Below are positions 2,086 to 58,467 of a DNA stretch of 64,000 nt, in pieces. The stretch's first letter is position 1. Every line of letters starts with the position of its first letter. Below the pieces are notes generated by a model. It saw only the letters and a list, made by a program, of their open reading frames with translations, did not search any database and was not told the DNA's origin. Position numbers and translations under genes: made by a program. This DNA is from Naegleria gruberi (lineage: Eukaryota), in NCBI GenBank assembly GCA_000004985.1, contig GG738894.1; one strand, 5' to 3'.

Positions 2086-5000
2086 ATGCCTCAAAGTAGA
2101 ACAATTACACCAAATTTTCCCTCCATCAACATGTTCCTATTTCATCGAGAACCGTACTTTTTAGATTCGAGTGAGGATAAAAATCGTATTCAAATCAACA
2201 ACAAGAACAATAATAGGGATGATGGAGAAGCAAAAACAATATTAAGGATGAGAAGTTTGGATGAAACTGTGCGGGATGATGATACGCATTCTTCTTCAAT
2301 ACATCATCAAGAAGCCTTGGAACATGTTTTTGGTAAGACAAGAACATCTTCCGCTACAACGAGAACAGTATCACAAAATTCAAGGAATACTAATTATTTT
2401 AATGCTAATACAATAGCAAAAAGCGAGAATAACAACAACTACAAGAAAAACCTTATTAATCACCTGATAATATTATTATTAATTACACTCTTAGTTGTAC
2501 TTCCAACCTTTGTAGAGTGCCTACATCCATTCGCCACATACAATTGGAACAATGATGATGAGATTTGGTTTGCTCAGTCGGCACCATTTTCTGGCCCTAG
2601 TAGCACAATTGGGACAGGTAAGTAGTATCAACATGTAAATGTTCTATAGTGAGTACTTTAATTAGAATTGAGAAATGGAATATTAGCTGCTTTTAATGAA
2701 ATCAACTCTGTTGGAGGTATATTCGGAAAGAAGAAGCTGAGATTGATCAGTATGGACGATGGCTATGAACCACCCAATACAGTTCGCAACATTAATAATT
2801 TTCTGAATGGAAACAAGACAATATTTGGATTTATTGGAGTGGTAGGCTCACCCACTATTCTTGCAGCCTATGATTTGGTAGTGTCGTCTGGTCTTCCTCT
2901 GATTGGAAGTTACACAGGAGCTACATTTTTGAGACAGCCCTTTCATGCAAATTTTGTAAACATTAGACCATCATACTATGATGAAACAGCTGCAATTATG
3001 GATGTATTGATTGGAAAAAACATGGCGAGGAAAATATCAGTCCTTCATCAAGATGATCCTTTTGGAATTAATGGATATGAAGGAGTTAAACGTATACTTG
3101 ACCATATGGGAATTCCAATGTGTTCATCAGGAAGTTATCAAAGAAACACACTCAACGTTGAGGATGCATTCTACAAGATTGCAAAGTGTGATCCAGATGC
3201 TATTGTTGTAGTGGCACTGTATGCACCAGCAACAAAATTCATCAAAATGGTTACCAACTCGACCCTTTACCGAAAGGATATTTTATTTGCAGCAACCTCA
3301 ATAGCCAGCGATTTAATTGTAAAGGAGCTAGGCCCTGAAATTGCTCCAAGAGTTCTGTTTTCACAAGTTGCCCCTTCTCCAACAGATACATCCTCGACCC
3401 TTGTTAAATCTTTCATCACCGCAAGGAAATCAATAGATTCTAATTTTACACAAGGTACATTTATTGAAATAGAGGGATATATTGCTGGAAAAATGACGTA
3501 TCACTTGCTCCACAGAATAATTGGATACATGTCCCCCAGTAACATGCTGACTAATCTTTACTATTCACAAGAAGTTATGTTTGACAATTTGAAATTAGGA
3601 CCATTCTCTTCAGTGTCTGTCAAGGATCCTGTTTACCTTATTCAAACAAATTTTTCCACTCAATTTGATTGCAATCAAGGCTCAAAATCAGTTTGGAGGA
3701 CGAAAGCTGATTCTAACTTGAATTTCTATAATTATGCACCTCCATTTTCATGGTACACTTCTGGCACATGTATTTCAACCCCAGGCGATGTCATCAATCC
3801 AATTTTATTAGCACAACTTGTTTATAACAATCTAGGATCTTCTAATACCTATCTCACTAACGGAATTAAAGCCGCCTTATCCACTGCATATGTCCAGGGA
3901 AGACCTATACATCTACTAACTCGCACTTACTCAGATTTCCAATCTCTTATTTCCACCACTCAAGATCTCGTTGAAAACTACTATATTACTGCATTGGTTG
4001 GATCTTCTGGATTGGGAGAAGTTATTAGTTTAAATACTTCCTCTATTGATCTATTCAGAGAGATATTTAAAACATCCTTCCCACATATTCCTCTGATTGG
4101 AAGTGTAGTTGACAATCCGTCAATCATGTCAACAACTGGTTCGTTGTTTATCCCATCCATGGTAAACATTAGAAGTACAATCATTGAGGAAATTGGAACT
4201 TTGCTTCAACATGCATTCAAAAGAGGAGTTACCAGAATATCAATAGTGAACTGTCCTGCATACGTCCATATCAACAAAATTTTCAAACTTTTAATGTCAA
4301 AATTGCAACTAACAATTGAGAGTGAGCATGGATGCTCAGATACCATTCTTTTCGATAGCATCTCGATAAACCCACAAGTGGTTCTAGTAGCATGTGCATC
4401 TGCCATTCTCCCTGGAACTCTTTTAAAGTTGGATGCAAGTAGTAATCTTAGACAAGATGCATTGTTTTTTGTTTTGGAAGAGAAGAAAAAGCTAGTCTTG
4501 TCAAGCCTTGAGAGTGGACCTAAAGGTGTACAAAGACCTATCTTATATAGTTCTTCATTCCCAGATCCAAAAATCTCGGCCGTAACCATTGTTTCAAGAT
4601 TTAAATCAACTACACCGCCTCTAACAGATCTTTCTGGGTATTATTCTTCTGATTTGGCTCTTGAAGGATATTTTATTGGAGAGTTTGTTGGATCAATATT
4701 GGGATCAGTTGCAGATTCAGCACCCTCAATAACAGGTCAGGCAATTATTGACTTTATATACAAAAGTCAACAGATAGTGGTGAGAGACCAAAAGTATGGA
4801 TACTTTATTAGAGACAAGAAAAATTCATTGTGCAATATTGGGTCGAGAACAAGATTTCTATTCCAGATAAGAAATTGTTCAACCTCAATACTATCAACAA
4901 CAGGTTTCCAACAACAATCATGTTGTTTACAATCTGTTTTAGAGGATTCCAGTACCCTCAACTTTAGAAGACCAATGCAGTTCGTTAGATTCAAACCAGG

Positions 5001-21969: not shown

Positions 21970-22512
21970 TTGACAAGCCTACCACAATTTCTTGATTCTG
22001 AATTCATCAAACTATTAATTAATTATAACATTGACTATCGTATTATTGAGCACATGCCTGAAGTTGTAAAAGTAACACCCATTACATCTGAATTTGTGAA
22101 GAAATGGCCACAAGCTTTTACTCTATACCCAGAATTTTATTCAGACGATGTACAATTCATTACAGATAGTAATGTTATGGCTATTGCATTTGCTCGTGAA
22201 CCAGTGCAACTGGAACACTTGGATTTAGTCGCTCAGGCAGGATTGACAACATTGCAGAAAAATTATACACAAAACTACTCACTGGTAAAAAGAGAGAGTG
22301 GGTAGTCTTTAGATGTGATTTTAATGTGTGCTGGTTCTCCTTTTGGAGGTCATTTGGCTGATCTTATTCCAGAACAAGTCTTGTTGGACAGGGATTTCTT
22401 AGTCAACCTTGTCAGGAGAAATGGCTTTGCTTACCAAATGATTCGAGAAATGACGATGGAAGAGGATGAAGATGAAGAATTAGCTATGGAAGCTTTGAAA
22501 TCTTGGGGCTGA
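21970..22512 (+). CDS. Hypothetical protein. Two adjacent ORFs, possibly one gene.
   Basis: ORFs 21970..22305 and 22315..22512 are separated by 9 nt in different frames, with an acidic C-terminus. Low-complexity support only. Confidence 0.3.
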
Positions 22513-22762: not shown

Positions 22763-24784
22763 ATGTCGCTATTCCTCACGCACTGTTTCCCTCATGCTAG
22801 CTCATGCACCGATCACTATGAATCCGATTCGGAATATGAATGTCGTGACGATCTATTCGATTTAAACAGATTCACACAACCAATTCACGTCGGATTGGAT
22901 TTAACAATCGAAGGTTCAAGAAAATTAGGACACTACCTATTGATCATCATGTGGAGGTTAATATTAAAAAGTCCCATGTTATTCCGAGTGAGAGATGAAG
23001 CGAAAGAACAAGTCAAATTGTTGGAGAAATTTTGTTGCCAGAGACACGAAGAGTTTGCTAGGGAGGTTTGTTGTTCGAATCATCATTTGTTTGAAGATTC
23101 GAGTGTGGAAGTGTTTGATGATATGCAGGTGTGGGCTTCCATGAGAGAAAGTGAAGAAAATGAGACACGGGAATACGAAGGAGAAAAGAGAATTAAATTA
23201 GATGCTGAATCCCTGTCAAAAGTTTATACACTTTCGAATTATTTTGCTACTATTGTTAAAAAATACATATTTGGAGAGTTGGCGAAACATGGCACTGCAG
23301 AGATTTACAAATTTATCACAAAGCAAAATAAGATTGCACTTACATTTAAAATTGAGGAGCTCAGAGATATGGTATTGAAATATTTCGAATATACTCCTTC
23401 AATGCTTCCATTGGAAGATCAGGATGTTAAATTATATTTTATTGGAATGACAGCCTTACTGGAATATTTGGCAGCTGAAATGATTGAATTGGGTGGAAAT
23501 GCCGCTAGAGATGCCCGTCAGGAATATATTACACCTTCTTGTTTTGAAATAGCCACTTCAGGAGATGCAGAATTGGAAAGGACGGTACTATTTCACATGA
23601 ACCATTTGCCTCTCGTTGATTTCAATTATTTTTATGGAGCCAATCAAACAGTATTACCTCCTATTGATGTGAATGAGAAAGCCAATAGTGGAGAGGAATT
23701 TAATTTTACTCAACTACCAACTGAATTACATAACACCATACTCAAAAATGTTTCTTCGTTGGAAGAACTTTTGGAAATGAGATTGGTTTGCAAACAATGG
23801 AACTATTTCATCATGAATGATAATGATATTTGGAAGAGTTTAATTTGTAACAATACGATTTCAGAAGATTTATTCAGGTTCTGTGATTCAACTTTTACTG
23901 TTGGTGAGTTGGAAACTATTTTGAGTAGAGGAAAAGATCTAAAACCTCTCCATTTTGGCCAACAAGTAATTAATCATTTCTATGAGAAGAATGATTGGAA
24001 GTCCCTATACTTTATTCTCGTACGAAGACATTTGACATTTATACGTGATTTGGATTTGATGAAATCAAGAGAATTTTTCGATGAATATTTCAATTACGAT
24101 TCTTCTGTAGAATCATATGACAACTCGAAAAAGAAACTGCAAATTGGAATTACAAAGGGTGTATTTGCGAATTTCAACTTTACAAAACACCTATCATCAC
24201 GTGTTTCGTCTAAGGTTTACATTCCTAAAGATGCTCTTTCAGAATTTTTGAAATTTGGAAATAATTATTCACTAGTTGGTGTGATTGACTTTTCAAAATT
24301 CTCCTCCTTCATTTCATGTCGTTTGTTCCCAAAAAATGGATTATTATATTGCTTTTATCACAAAATCAATCAAGCAGATTTTCTATTCTTTGAGAATTAT
24401 TCTCTTGAATCTGAACAATTAATTGAATTTGAAATCAAAGACAAAAGCTTTGAATTTCCTCAACCAATTAATCCATACCAAGTCTACCATGAACAAATTA
24501 TTGTCAATCAACCTTCATGTTGTCCACTCTTTTACTTGCAGCAAGCACAAGGTCATCGTTCAGGTTGCAATCTAGCCCCAAGCGTTCTATTTAACAATAA
24601 TGAAGACAAACCTGAAACAATGATTCAATCCTACCTCAGAGAGGATGACGAGGATAATATAGTACTGCTATCAGACACCTTGGAGGAATCAGAAGATACT
24701 TTTTCTATTTACATTTCAAGAGAGGATTTAATCTTAAGAAAGTTTGAGAATGCAAAAATTGAATATGTGAAACCAAACTACTAG
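22763..24784 (+). CDS. Histone H2A-like histone-fold domain plus F-box protein
   Basis: Residues ~215-265 (MTALLEYLAAEMIELGGNAARDARQEYITPSCFEIATSGDAELERTV) align with the H2A alpha2-L2-alpha3 and docking region ([40 protein letters not shown]). An F-box lies downstream (LPTELHNTILKNVSSLEELLEMRLVCKQWNYFIMNDNDIWKSL). Confidence 0.65.
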   Translation: MSLFLTHCFPHASSCTDHYESDSEYECRDDLFDLNRFTQPIHVGLDLTIEGSRKLGHYLLIIMWRLILKSPMLFRVRDEAKEQVKLLEKFCCQRHEEFAREVCCSNHHLFEDSSVEVFDDMQVWASMRESEENETREYEGEKRIKLDAESLSKVYTLSNYFATIVKKYIFGELAKHGTAEIYKFITKQNKIALTFKIEELRDMVLKYFEYTPSMLPLEDQDVKLYFIGMTALLEYLAAEMIELGGNAARDARQEYITPSCFEIATSGDAELERTVLFHMNHLPLVDFNYFYGANQTVLPPIDVNEKANSGEEFNFTQLPTELHNTILKNVSSLEELLEMRLVCKQWNYFIMNDNDIWKSLICNNTISEDLFRFCDSTFTVGELETILSRGKDLKPLHFGQQVINHFYEKNDWKSLYFILVRRHLTFIRDLDLMKSREFFDEYFNYDSSVESYDNSKKKLQIGITKGVFANFNFTKHLSSRVSSKVYIPKDALSEFLKFGNNYSLVGVIDFSKFSSFISCRLFPKNGLLYCFYHKINQADFLFFENYSLESEQLIEFEIKDKSFEFPQPINPYQVYHEQIIVNQPSCCPLFYLQQAQGHRSGCNLAPSVLFNNNEDKPETMIQSYLREDDEDNIVLLSDTLEESEDTFSIYISREDLILRKFENAKIEYVKPNY

Positions 24785-25061: not shown

Positions 25062-25457
25062 CTACAAATCTTCGTCTTCAAATTGTGGAGGTTTGTGATG
25101 ATCTGGATTAACATTTCCAAACGAAGATGAAGAACTACCTCCTCTATTTCCACTTCCATAACCTCCAAATGGTCCAATGGTAGGATAAACTGGATCAAAT
25201 CGAGAACCTGGTAACATCTGAGGAGGTTTCATATCTCCTCCTCCCATTGAAGAAGCAGAAGGAAAATTCGAACGATCATTGAAAATTGGATTATTTGGTC
25301 CAACTTGATTGCCACCAAATCCACCACTCATTGAGGAAGGAGCATTTCCATGTAAAGGTTGAAAACAAGGCAATGGATTTAAATCTTGATCTCCTACTCT
25401 TCTATTATTATTCATCATCATGTTGTTACTATTATTGTTAAAATTATTGTTATTCAT
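25062..25457 (-). CDS. Small N/G/P-rich low-complexity protein
   Basis: 131 aa with a poly-N N-terminus and a Gly/Pro-rich body (…RFDPVYPTIGPFGGYGSG…NPDHHKPPQFEDEDL). It loosely resembles a PI31-type Pro/Gly tail but lacks an HbYX end. Confidence 0.4.
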   Translation of the reverse strand: MNNNNFNNNSNNMMMNNNRRVGDQDLNPLPCFQPLHGNAPSSMSGGFGGNQVGPNNPIFNDRSNFPSASSMGGGDMKPPQMLPGSRFDPVYPTIGPFGGYGSGNRGGSSSSSFGNVNPDHHKPPQFEDEDL

Positions 25458-25660: not shown

Positions 25661-26770
25661 TTATTCAAAATCTATTGAGATATCAGAGAGTTGATTGTTA
25701 ATTATTTTGATCAATAAATTAGATTTGAAACTATTGATATTGTGGAAGCGCTTCATATGTTCATACAAAAGATATCTCAATGCATACAAGGTCAGTAGGC
25801 ATTGGTTTTCATTTCCGTGACTATATCCATACCATGGAGTGAACATTACCTTCTTAGTTTTGTGAATAACCCATGGATATTTCTGCCTTTCACTTACACT
25901 CCTAGCAAGTAAATGCCAATCATTTACATTACTCAAGGTGGTGTCACAAACTCCACAAATGTATAAATCATCCAATTTCAAACAATCCTCAATAGTCTCT
26001 TCCACTTCACCAATTGTTTGAACTCTATTTTCTAATTTGTTCATACACTTATTCACAAATATAGTCAAGCTCTGATTATCCAATTGATTAATATTTTGTA
26101 GCAAGAGTTGTACATAAGTTCCATCTGTATACTCCACATAACCATCATTTGTGTCCTTTCTTCTCACAAAACCAAGTCTCATTGGAACTGATCGTCCTGC
26201 TCCTCTCAAAAACACTACAGACAACTCTCCACTGTTGATTAAATCATTAATCACACCTACAACAACTGAATCAAATCCCGTATAAGTTCCAGAATATAAC
26301 GTGAAGAAAACAATATTATATCCTCTCAGAAAGCTCCTCATCACTTGAGGTTGCAAGCTACAAAAACTGGATTCATTAATCCGATCCACCTTCTTGAATA
26401 TACATTTCTGATCGAGCATGAATCTCGTCCAATGTGATTCAGTGGACTCCTCCGAAGTCTTGAATAATTTTGGATTTTTAACATAATAACACAATCTCTC
26501 TTCAATACATTGCATAAAGTGGGCAGGTTCTGATGTATCTGCTTGAATAATCAAGGCTGATTGTAATTCATCAAATTCCTTTATAGTCAATTCATCCAAA
26601 TTGTCAGTGATTGCAAGTGGAACCAGATCAATGTCCTTCCTATCATGAGGTGTCCCTGCATCTAGATTATTATCAATTGTATCGTAATCATCCATTTTTT
26701 TTGTTGTAATATTTATTCTAAAAATAATTTGGCTCCATGGTAACAATTTGAAAGCAGTTACACGCAACAT
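25661..26770 (-). CDS. Hypothetical protein (369 aa)
   Basis: A long intron-free ORF with good codon periodicity. No family recognised by eye (…GYNIVFFTLYSGTYTGFDSVVVGVINDLINSGELSVVFLRGAGRSVPMRLGF…). Confidence 0.5.
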   Translation of the reverse strand: MLRVTAFKLLPWSQIIFRINITTKKMDDYDTIDNNLDAGTPHDRKDIDLVPLAITDNLDELTIKEFDELQSALIIQADTSEPAHFMQCIEERLCYYVKNPKLFKTSEESTESHWTRFMLDQKCIFKKVDRINESSFCSLQPQVMRSFLRGYNIVFFTLYSGTYTGFDSVVVGVINDLINSGELSVVFLRGAGRSVPMRLGFVRRKDTNDGYVEYTDGTYVQLLLQNINQLDNQSLTIFVNKCMNKLENRVQTIGEVEETIEDCLKLDDLYICGVCDTTLSNVNDWHLLARSVSERQKYPWVIHKTKKVMFTPWYGYSHGNENQCLLTLYALRYLLYEHMKRFHNINSFKSNLLIKIINNQLSDISIDFE

Positions 26771-26966: not shown

Positions 26967-27306
26967 AGTGTTGGAAATGCAAAGGAGCAAAATATTAGAA
27001 TCGACAACTGACTAGACAATTTCACGTTGAAATTCAATGAGGTCTGTAAATTATTAATTTTTGAATTAGTACCCCAGTAATATTAATAATAATAATACAA
27101 CATTGTAAAGACAATATCTTAATGAGAGTGTCAAAGGAGAATTTATCCAATCATTTTTCCCTGACACACCAAATAAAACTTATCAGTCAGTAGTCAATTG
27201 TGAGACAAATCTCAGACAACCAAATTGAGAAGAATCGACACTCCCCATGGAACACAACTCTCATACTTACCCCTCACCATTTCGTTTGACATCCATCTGT
27301 AAAAAA

Positions 27307-28454
27307 ATGTTAGGCAGTAAGATTTGTCTATTGTTGCTTGCATGTTGTGTTGTTTCCCTACTTTTGGTCAACTTCCAAACAGTTAATAGTTCAAGACCCA
27401 ATTGTTCTGATCCATTACCTAAAGATTCCAGTCAATTTAGAAGAAATACCTTGCAACATGCTCTTGAGGAAGAATCTCTTCTTCAAGAAGATGACATGGA
27501 CCACTTGAACACCTTGAGTGCTGTCACTTTGAAAGGTGGCAGAGGTGGTGGAAGAGGTGGACGTGGTCGTGGTGGTGGTAGAGGTGGTAGAGGAGAGGAG
27601 GTAGAGGTAGAGGAGGACGTGGTTCAAGAGGAAGTAGAGGATCCAGAGGTGGTAAAGGAAGTAGAGGAAGCAAAGGTGGTTCAAGATCATCTTCTGGAAG
27701 AGGAAGTAGAGGAAGTAGAGGAGGTGGAAGAGGTAGAGGAAGCAGAGGAAGTAGAAGTGGATCAAGATCATCCTCAAGATCTGGAAGAAACAGTGGAAAG
27801 AGTAGAGGTGGAAAAGCTTCTTCGTCATCATCATCTGCTTCTTCTAAGGGAGCAAGAAGATCTGCAGCATCCAAAGCTAAAGCTACCAACAAATCACCAA
27901 CCGATTTGGGAAGAGTTTCGGTTACTGCCAGACGAACCTCCAAAACTAAAACAACTCAACAACAACAACAACAAGAATCCAAGGAAACTAAAAACAATAG
28001 AACCAAATCAGGAGGAGAAGGTTTACATATTCCATTTACAATGGAAGCTCTCAATATCATGTTCAAGGCCAAGAAGAAATTTGACGGATTTTTGGGACCT
28101 CACACTCAAAGACTTCCTCCAATTCCATTCGTTTCTGATAAACAAACATCTTGTGTGGCATGTAGAGTTGATTGCCTTAAAAGATGGAATGGTTTGGATA
28201 GACGTTCCATTTTTAGTAAGTGTAAGAAACAATTTTACTATTATGGATGTGAAAAAATTGCTCCATGTTTGAGAACGAGAGGAAATGGAGCAAATTTAGA
28301 GGAAGTTGAAGGTATGTTAGGTATTTGTTATGATAGAAATGGTTGTGAATTGGACAGACTTGTCGCCACTCAATATGTCAAACTTTATGGAATTGAAAAT
28401 GCGTCGAGAAGAATTGCAGCTGATATCATGTCTGAAAATCAAGATACTCAATAA
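27307..28454 (+). CDS. Secreted RGG/SR-rich protein with a C-terminal Cys-rich domain. A +1 frameshift sits near 27586-27600.
   Basis: Signal peptide MLGSKICLLLLACCVVSLLLVNFQTVNS. Frame 1 runs to …GGRGGGRGGRGRGGGRGGRG and then decays into EEVEVEE… The coherent continuation (…GGRGSRGSRGSRGGKGS…SKGARRSAASKA…CVACRVDCLKRWNG…CEKIAPCL…GICYDRNGCELD…) is in frame 3. That frame is open from ~27586 to the stop at 28454. Confidence 0.5.
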
Positions 28455-56965: not shown

Positions 56966-57129
56966 ATTTACAACCTAGATTAAAAACTAAATTATAAAAC
57001 AAATAAAGCTGAGTAGGGAGCTTTGTGTAAAATAAGAGCCAACGATTGTTATTTACAAAATAATTTATTTTCTTTTACATCTGTTCCTGTATCAGTATTT
57101 ATTTACCTTTTGATTAGTGTTGAATCGAT

Positions 57130-57220
57130 GGTGAGTTGGTCGAGTGGTCTAAGACGACACGTTAAGGTATGATTAATACCGTGTTCCGCAAGGGCGTGGG
57201 TTCAAATCCCACACTCATCA
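57130..57220 (+). tRNA. tRNA-Leu(AAG) with an 11-nt intron (approximate coordinates)
   Basis: Type II tRNA. Acceptor GGTGAGT/ACTCATC with one G-U pair, and discriminator A. D-arm GTC-GAGTGGTCTAA-GAC. Anticodon stem ACACG/CGTGT with loop TTAAGG-[TATGATTAATA]-C, the intron sitting after position 37. Long variable arm. T-arm GTGGG-TTCAAAT-CCCAC. Confidence 0.7.
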
Positions 57221-57422
57221 GTTTTTAATTTAATGATCAAAATAAAATTTTATCTTCATTGCCATCAAAAATCATTTTAGTACTTTGTCAATCTTATTTC
57301 CTCTCACACCATTATTGTAGCGCGGAAGCAAGGTAATCCATCGAAAATCAATGGTGAGGTTGAACACGTGTTCAGATCATCAAACAAATATCAAGAGCTC
57401 GGAAAATTGCGATATAAAAAAA

Positions 57423-58393: not shown

Positions 58394-58467
58394 GCCTTCC
58401 TAGCTCAGTTGGCAGTAGCGCTGTCCTAGTAAGACAGAGGTCTTGGGTTCGATTCCCAAGGGAGGCA
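58394..58467 (+). tRNA. tRNA-Thr(AGU) (approximate coordinates)
   Basis: Acceptor GCCTTCC/GGGAGGC with one G-U pair, and discriminator A. Anticodon stem CTGTC/GACAG with loop CTAGTAA (U33, AGT, A37). T-arm TTGGG-TTCGATT-CCCAA. The D-stem has one mismatch. Confidence 0.55.

Follow-up and report, generated by a model that had tools for sequence, protein, structure and literature searches.

The gene and its product

The window analysed in this study is a stretch of 64,000 nucleotides of Naegleria gruberi DNA (assembly GCA_000004985.1, contig GG738894.1). The gene in question occupies positions 22763..24784 on its + strand, on which all parts of the gene given below also lie. It is a single intron-free open reading frame (ORF) of 673 amino acids plus stop, beginning with ATG, without a competing long ORF on either strand and with only trivial overlapping ORFs in other frames. 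The encoded protein is 97% identical to N. gruberi NAEGRDRAFT_69196, whose annotation is merely hypothetical or 'F-box domain-containing protein'. A preliminary description, made from the letters of the window alone, saw in it a histone H2A-like segment within an F-box protein and proposed a substrate adaptor of an SCF (Skp1-cullin-F-box) ubiquitin ligase, perhaps pairing with H2B. We regard the following architecture as very probable, from N- to C-terminus: a single-chain H2B-H2A pair, an F-box, a helical linker and a domain of the TYPP/DUF1963 type. Because the ORF is uninterrupted, the fusion of H2B to H2A is not a splicing mis-annotation.

An H2B fold followed by an H2A fold

The H2A-like string quoted in the preliminary description lies at aa 232-272 (LLEYLAAEMIELGGNAARDARQEYITPSCFEIATSGDAELER). 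Its likeness to the alpha2-L2-alpha3 segment of H2A stands, but the histone-derived region extends well beyond it and comprises an entire H2B fold and then an entire H2A fold. The H2B-like fold comes in two blocks, alpha1-L1-alpha2 (aa 34-77, 22862..22993) and L2-alpha3-alphaC (aa 147-190, 23201..23332), separated by a family-specific insertion of ~65-70 aa (aa 78-146, 22994..23200). The H2A-like fold follows directly, with its alpha1-L1-alpha2-L2-alpha3-alphaC at aa 191-280 (23333..23602). Behind its alphaC lies a segment that is conserved within the family (aa 281-315, 23603..23707, HMNHLPLVDFNYFYGANQTVLPPI).

The H2A-like fold and the second H2B-like block are recognised by simple sequence comparison. 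A phmmer search against all PDB sequences gave 208 matches. All 60 of those listed are H2A, H2A.Z or H2B-H2A fusions, and the best among them, at E 2.7e-9, are engineered single-chain H2B-H2A(.Z) chimeras; H2A alone reaches E ~1e-6. The alignment to the chimeras runs from H2B alpha3/alphaC through the complete H2A fold to aa 274. Within it, the H2B-like alpha3/alphaC string FGELAKHGTAE stands opposite H2B PGELAKHAVSEG, with E172 at H2B E105 and E180 at H2B E113. The first H2B-like block was found by profile comparison with hhalign, in which the family profile of the H2B half matched a true-H2B profile over aa 34-75 at default settings (probability 90.6%, E 1.3e-6). With a greedier setting, H2B positions 12-91 of 96 were matched end to end with aa 34-187 (E 8.5e-7; probability range of the comparisons, 90.6-91.5%), and this alignment places an insertion of ~65 residues between alpha2 and L2. 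AlphaFold2 (AF2) models the first block as helices 35-41 and 49-68, with a predicted local distance difference test score (pLDDT) of ~87-91. Structure prediction followed by Foldseek comparison also yielded an H2B-H2A fold pair, many of the top structural matches being H2A-H2B dimers crystallised with chaperones; identity in the structural alignments was 25% to true H2B-H2A and 18% to the histone domain of SOS. The histone part is thus predicted to be specifically H2B-H2A-like and paired in cis, which makes the pairing with a separate H2B that had been suggested unnecessary.

Some results weigh against this assignment. The Pfam Histone model (PF00125) matched neither the whole protein at E<=10 nor aa 150-296 at E<=1, and it matched none of ten relatives and paralogues at E<=0.1. 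When the family profile of the H2B half was run against PDB with hmmsearch, H2B was the only match and a non-significant one (E 0.72), and the predicted structures were built from a shallow alignment of 13 sequences. We do not take the Pfam Histone failure as a refutation, because sequence, profile-profile and structure tests agree with one another. The Pfam Histone model is too distant from this region, and the homology is real. Of the two domains for which a hidden Markov model (HMM) search had been suggested as a test, only the F-box was recovered above threshold, and for the histone part the stronger tests overrule that outcome.

The insertion within the H2B-like fold consists of a conserved helix (aa 78-102) and a disordered acidic stretch that ends in KRIKL, with a net charge of -9 over aa 78-146. 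KRIKL, which is KKRK in paralogues, aligns with 'KRSTI' of H2B L2. In nucleosomes the region of the H2B alpha2/L2 junction forms a four-helix bundle with H4. A second insertion, of ~10 aa, is found family-wide in L1 of the H2A-like fold. The segment at aa 281-315 weakly resembles the H2A docking segment 'GGVLPNI', and it is modelled at pLDDT <50-55. We also noted an arginine in the inserted helix, Arg94 (nt 23042-23044), which 9 of 13 members share and which does not vary in a 10-sequence alignment; it may serve the acidic patch described below as an arginine anchor in cis.

DNA contacts lost and acidic patch kept

For the comparison of residues, 12 family members were aligned to H2A, and the H2B-equivalent positions and isoelectric points (pI) were counted over 13 sequences. 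At the eight basic positions through which H2A contacts DNA (R29, R32, R35, K36, R42, K74, K75 and R77), a basic residue is found in only 15 of the 96 cells of the alignment. The window protein reads R29E, R32D, R35L, K36K, R42Q, K74R, K75Q and R77Y at these positions, and T76E next to them. The six H2A positions of the acidic patch (E56, E61, E64, D90, E91 and E92) are acidic in 61 of 72 cells. The window protein reads E, E, E, D, A and E here, so that E234, E239, E242, D268 and E270 are retained; together with the equivalents of H2B E105 and E113, it keeps seven of the eight patch residues. The equivalent of H2B E105 is glutamate in 10 of 13 members. The module as a whole has turned acidic, with a pI of 4.4-5.8 in 11 of 13 members as compared with 10.6 for human H2B plus H2A, and the H2A-like fold of the window protein has a net charge of -9 and a pI of 4.3.

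The patch also stands out among the best-conserved positions. Leaving Met1 aside, ten positions of the module have the same residue in 10 or more of the 13 sequences, and five of them belong to the acidic patch (H2B E105; H2A E61, E64, D90 and E92), an enrichment with a hypergeometric p of 5e-7 to 1e-5 depending on the background chosen. Judged by these alignments, the predicted cis H2B-H2A module has lost its DNA-contact residues and retained its acidic patch. Because the basic contacts are gone, the pair is acidic overall and insertions interrupt H2B alpha2/L2 and H2A L1, it no longer looks like a histone pair that wraps DNA. The lost contacts and the insertions likewise argue against its assembly with H4-H3 and DNA into nucleosome-like particles.

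These residues also bear on the possibility that the module imitates a free H2A-H2B dimer for NAP1, FACT, Chz1-like or importin-9-like proteins, or targets them for degradation. It has the shape of a chaperone client, and the chaperone-bound dimers among its top structural matches would fit such a role. However, H2A-H2B chaperones use acidic segments to grip mainly the basic DNA-binding surface, and this is the surface that is lost or charge-reversed here. We consider this explanation very improbable.

F-box, linker and C-terminal domain

The F-box at aa 316-361 (23708..23845, LPTELHNTILKNVSSLEELLEMRLVCKQWNYFIMNDNDIWKSL) is real. It scores above the Pfam cut-offs with both PF12937 (30.9 bits, cut-off 24.3) and PF00646 (24.8 bits, cut-off 20.5), and it is predicted to form three helices (320-328, 333-339 and 344-352) ahead of the C-terminal domain. 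It is the best-conserved block of the family, and the paralogues also pass the Pfam F-box cut-offs. A helical linker (aa 362-458, 23846..24136; AF2 helices within 354-457) leads to a divergent TYPP/DUF1963 (YwqG-like) beta domain at aa ~459-673 (24137..24781). Against PDB, the family profile of this domain matches residues 39-257 of the 264 in Bacillus subtilis YwqG (1pv5; E 3.9e-8), and Foldseek returns the same structure at E 2.7e-3. Paralogues match PF09234 (DUF1963) at their C-termini with 31-41 bits, the cut-off being 23; the window protein by itself gives no PF09234 match, and Pfam finds only its F-box.

DUF1963 belongs to the TYPP superfamily (TSR4, YwqG, PDCD2L, PDCD2). Burroughs and Aravind suggested that this superfamily binds peptides in a chaperone-like manner (PMC4275035). 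Its defining features are a GGxP motif and, along the pocket, a conserved Q, and its YwqG family was reported in 'a small group of eukaryotes', with BRCT fusions noted (PMC4275035). PDCD2 is described as a dedicated chaperone of ribosomal protein uS5 (PMC7736825). The YwqG-like domain is common to the superfamily and the Naegleria protein, and PMC4275035 reports no fusion of it to an F-box and a histone pair.

A gene family in Naegleria and Willaertia

Relatives of the protein were collected by an exhaustive HMMER search of 1.84 billion representatives. A word-indexed homologue search, run with the single sequence and again with the family alignment, found none of the paralogues and recovered only two H2A-containing proteins besides P0001 and P0002. 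In the HMMER search, about twelve proteins, each 560-690 aa long, align across all three regions. N. gruberi contributes NAEGRDRAFT_69753 and _51545, N. lovaniensis three genes and Willaertia magna at least four, the others being from metagenome or SRA assemblies, and all named members are annotated as 'hypothetical' or 'F-box domain-containing'. This is an unannotated vahlkampfiid gene family. The search among dictyostelids that had been suggested was misdirected, as the gene is from Naegleria (Heterolobosea) and the named members of its family are from Naegleria and Willaertia.

Is the histone region still in use? It might be an evolutionary relic, that is, a scaffold or spacer left by a gene fusion, with all function residing in the F-box and C-terminal domain. 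Such a view could draw on the strong divergence of the region, with the failure of Pfam Histone, on the paralogues P0007 and P0019, whose histone motifs are badly eroded, and on the copy on contig k127_510267 of ENA ERZ929261 (L001, 2.7 kb). This 66%-identical homologue is full-length only after repair of a 1-nt frameshift, a deletion relative to the window at ~770-800, in the H2A-like alpha2/L2, which turns GGNAARD into (G)GNTLRG. Nevertheless, Nei-Gojobori dN/dS between the two copies is 0.25 for the H2B-like and 0.31 for the H2A-like part, similar to the F-box (0.19) and the C-terminal domain (0.24), which shows that the histone-derived region is under purifying selection and as constrained as the remaining protein. 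Moreover, the patch positions, which are solvent-exposed in canonical nucleosomes, are among the most conserved of the module, and the module is kept in three named species of at least two genera as well as in a free-standing gene. A mere relic is therefore highly unlikely.

The free-standing gene encodes P0021, a family-type H2B-H2A module of 224 aa at 4001-4675 (+) of a second metagenomic contig (ENA ERZ27315067 k141_397194, L002). It stops directly past alphaC, and no F-box or TYPP ORF follows downstream on the same strand; the module therefore exists outside the F-box context. P0021 adjoins an intron-containing G-alpha gene of a eukaryote.

Another relative, P0031 (ENA metagenome, 576 aa), consists of BRCT, F-box and DUF1963, so that a BRCT domain occupies the place of the histone pair and the back end is unchanged. 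BRCT is a phosphopeptide-binding domain. To the extent that this relative suggests a chromatin or DNA-damage context, it would suit a chromatin tether, in which the pair binds H3-H4, as tetrasome or hexasome, or takes the place of nucleosomal H2A-H2B, and the SCF, thereby placed on chromatin, ubiquitylates histones or chromatin-bound proteins. The complete predicted H2B-H2A fold, the conserved segment behind alphaC with its weak 'VLPPI' likeness to the H2A docking motif and the basic KRIKL/KKRK motif aligned with H2B L2 point in the same direction. On the other side, the DNA-contact positions are seldom basic, with charge reversals in the window protein and a module pI of ~5, the ~65-aa insertion falls on the region of H2B alpha2/L2 that contributes to the bundle with H4, with a further ~10 aa in H2A L1, and the docking-like segment is modelled at a pLDDT below ~55. 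Taken together, we judge a chromatin tether unlikely.

Proposed function

As for the function, the preliminary interpretation is upheld in its combination of a histone fold with an F-box and abandoned in its separate H2B. We propose that the F-box docks on Skp1 and that the protein would thereby be the substrate-receptor subunit of an SCF ubiquitin ligase, a role that its domains make probable. The acidic patch of H2A-H2B is the surface gripped by nucleosome-binding proteins with an arginine anchor. The histone pair might act as a DNA-free mimic of this surface, by which acidic-patch-binding (arginine-anchor) proteins, putatively nuclear like the receptor itself, would be recruited to the ligase for ubiquitylation. 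The TYPP domain might provide a second binding site, its fold having been proposed to hold extended peptides. We put forward recruitment through the acidic patch only tentatively, with some doubt that it takes place, and the explanatory chain as a whole, from the architecture to patch-based recruitment, seems to us evenly balanced between right and wrong. The strongest form of the proposal, in which the pair is a soluble acidic-patch decoy that selects SCF substrates by their arginine anchors and is also the first confirmed H2B-H2A fusion of a cellular eukaryote, we think fairly unlikely.

Several observations tell against the proposed function. The equivalent of H2A E91 is alanine in the window protein, and only 7 of the 13 aligned sequences, the window protein among them, have an acidic residue at that of H2B E113. 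The patch residues sit in the best-conserved helices of H2A, and their retention may partly reflect ancestry or fold stability. In the clade of the window protein the GGxP motif and the conserved Q of the TYPP domain are lost, TKGVFANF and LVGVIDF standing where paralogues have K.GG.P and FIAQIN; both are present in several paralogues. The domain of this clade may consequently not bind peptides canonically. Finally, L001 is the sole close homologue outside N. gruberi, and its frameshift divides it into ORFs of 241 and 420 aa; the cause may be a mistake in the assembly, or the gene may be split or a recent pseudogene.

If the proposal is true, this ubiquitin ligase would choose its substrates through histone mimicry. 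With DNA contacts lost and the acidic patch kept, the residue pattern is in effect a separation-of-function experiment done by nature, and it suggests that the patch can be used as a stand-alone surface for protein recognition, wired here to a ubiquitin ligase. TYPP/DUF1963, a poorly understood domain, gains a new eukaryotic context. Why might such proteins go unnoticed? Surveys of histone-fold proteins with Pfam-type HMMs would probably miss the family, because the Pfam Histone model does not match it, and the diversity of repurposed histones in protists may for this reason be underestimated.

Comparison with known systems and possible origin

Chromatin-directed F-box proteins such as KDM2A, KDM2B and FBXL19 offer the nearest organisation among F-box receptors, since they too have a canonical F-box, a C-terminal recognition domain and an additional N-terminal targeting module. 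We know of no description of a histone-fold pair or of TYPP/DUF1963 as partner domains of an F-box. Literature searches on the locus tags, on DUF1963 with F-box and on histone fold with F-box returned nothing relevant; the preliminary description, too, knew of no described family with a histone-fold and F-box architecture. Modules like these have no precedent in an F-box receptor. The architecture is unannotated, and it apparently contains the first conserved cellular H2B-H2A fusion.

SOS (Son of Sevenless) provides another case of a single-chain histone-fold pair in a non-histone protein (PDB 1q9c), there joined to the DH-PH-REM-Cdc25 domains of a Ras-GEF instead of an F-box and a TYPP domain. 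In SOS, the pair is basic and has a role in autoinhibition and in binding to membrane lipids. By analogy, the Naegleria pair might be an internal regulator that has no external ligand, packs on the linker or TYPP domain and gates substrate access, R94 possibly filling the patch in cis. Unlike SOS, however, the Naegleria module is acidic (pI ~5) and keeps both the GGNAARD and GELAKH signatures of H2A and H2B and the acidic patch, and its free-standing metagenomic copy indicates that it can function outside the F-box/TYPP context. We therefore attach little likelihood to internal regulation.

Giant viruses (Marseilleviridae, Pithoviridae and giant-virus metagenome-assembled genomes, GVMAGs) encode histone doublets in the same H2B-then-H2A order. 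The viral doublets are small and basic, and they form nucleosome-like particles by wrapping DNA (PMC8357426). The Naegleria module differs from them in being cellular, in lying inside an F-box protein of 673 aa and in having lost its DNA-contact residues. It may have been captured from a giant virus as a doublet or have arisen as a separate fusion in a cellular genome. In Foldseek, viral structures from BFVD gave weaker matches than cellular PDB histones; the family HMM scored GVMAG doublets about equally to cellular H2B plus H2A concatenations. No relatives were found on IMG/VR and JGI metagenome contigs scanned with an F-box-derived pattern. If the module is indeed such a fusion, its history, whether viral capture or cellular joining, bears on the debate over the source of viral histone doublets.

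Our searches also brought up natural H2B-H2A doublets with near-canonical histone motifs, all metagenomic (P0025, P0027, P0030 and P0035; loci L003-L012). Relatives of P0030 lie on IMG/VR contigs of giant-virus metagenome-assembled genomes, with 35-41% identity across the whole doublet, and three further IMG/VR loci match P0030 in the H2A half only (54%). P0099 and P0100 are candidate fusions in the opposite order, H2A then H2B.

Genomic setting

The surroundings of the gene are those of a cellular eukaryote. The window encodes EF-2, a receptor-type adenylate cyclase, an RGS-ankyrin protein, RCC1 repeats and a BTB-BACK protein, and it combines long ORFs with few introns and a GC content of ~34%. 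A giant-virus origin of the window was considered and rejected, as it carries cellular Naegleria genes and matches N. gruberi.

Two adjoining ORFs at 21970-22512 (+) lie upstream of the F-box gene and probably make up a single separate gene; DUF4116 matches the second of them weakly (21.5 bits, under the cut-off of 24.9). Downstream, tail-to-tail with the F-box gene and at a distance of 277 bp, an ORF of 131 aa (25062-25457, -) contains the C-terminal domain of the proteasome regulator PI31 (PF08577, 55.5 bits). PI31 partners with FBXO7, itself an F-box protein. The two genes are not seen side by side on the homologous contig L001, and their adjacency may be coincidental; the N-terminal FP domain was not found in the ORF that lies upstream of the PI31-like one (25661-26770). 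Farther along, the ORF at 27247-28272 (+) encodes a hydrophobic N-terminus, an RGG repeat (GGRGGGRGGRGRGGGRGGRG) and a long acidic repeat of the EEVE type, and it has no Pfam match; its repeats account for a rise of GC to 0.46 and a strong purine skew at 27500-28000. Two tRNA genes lie in a more distant part of the window, one of 93 nt and probably intron-containing (57129-57221, +), the other for tRNA-Thr(AGT) (58394-58467, +).

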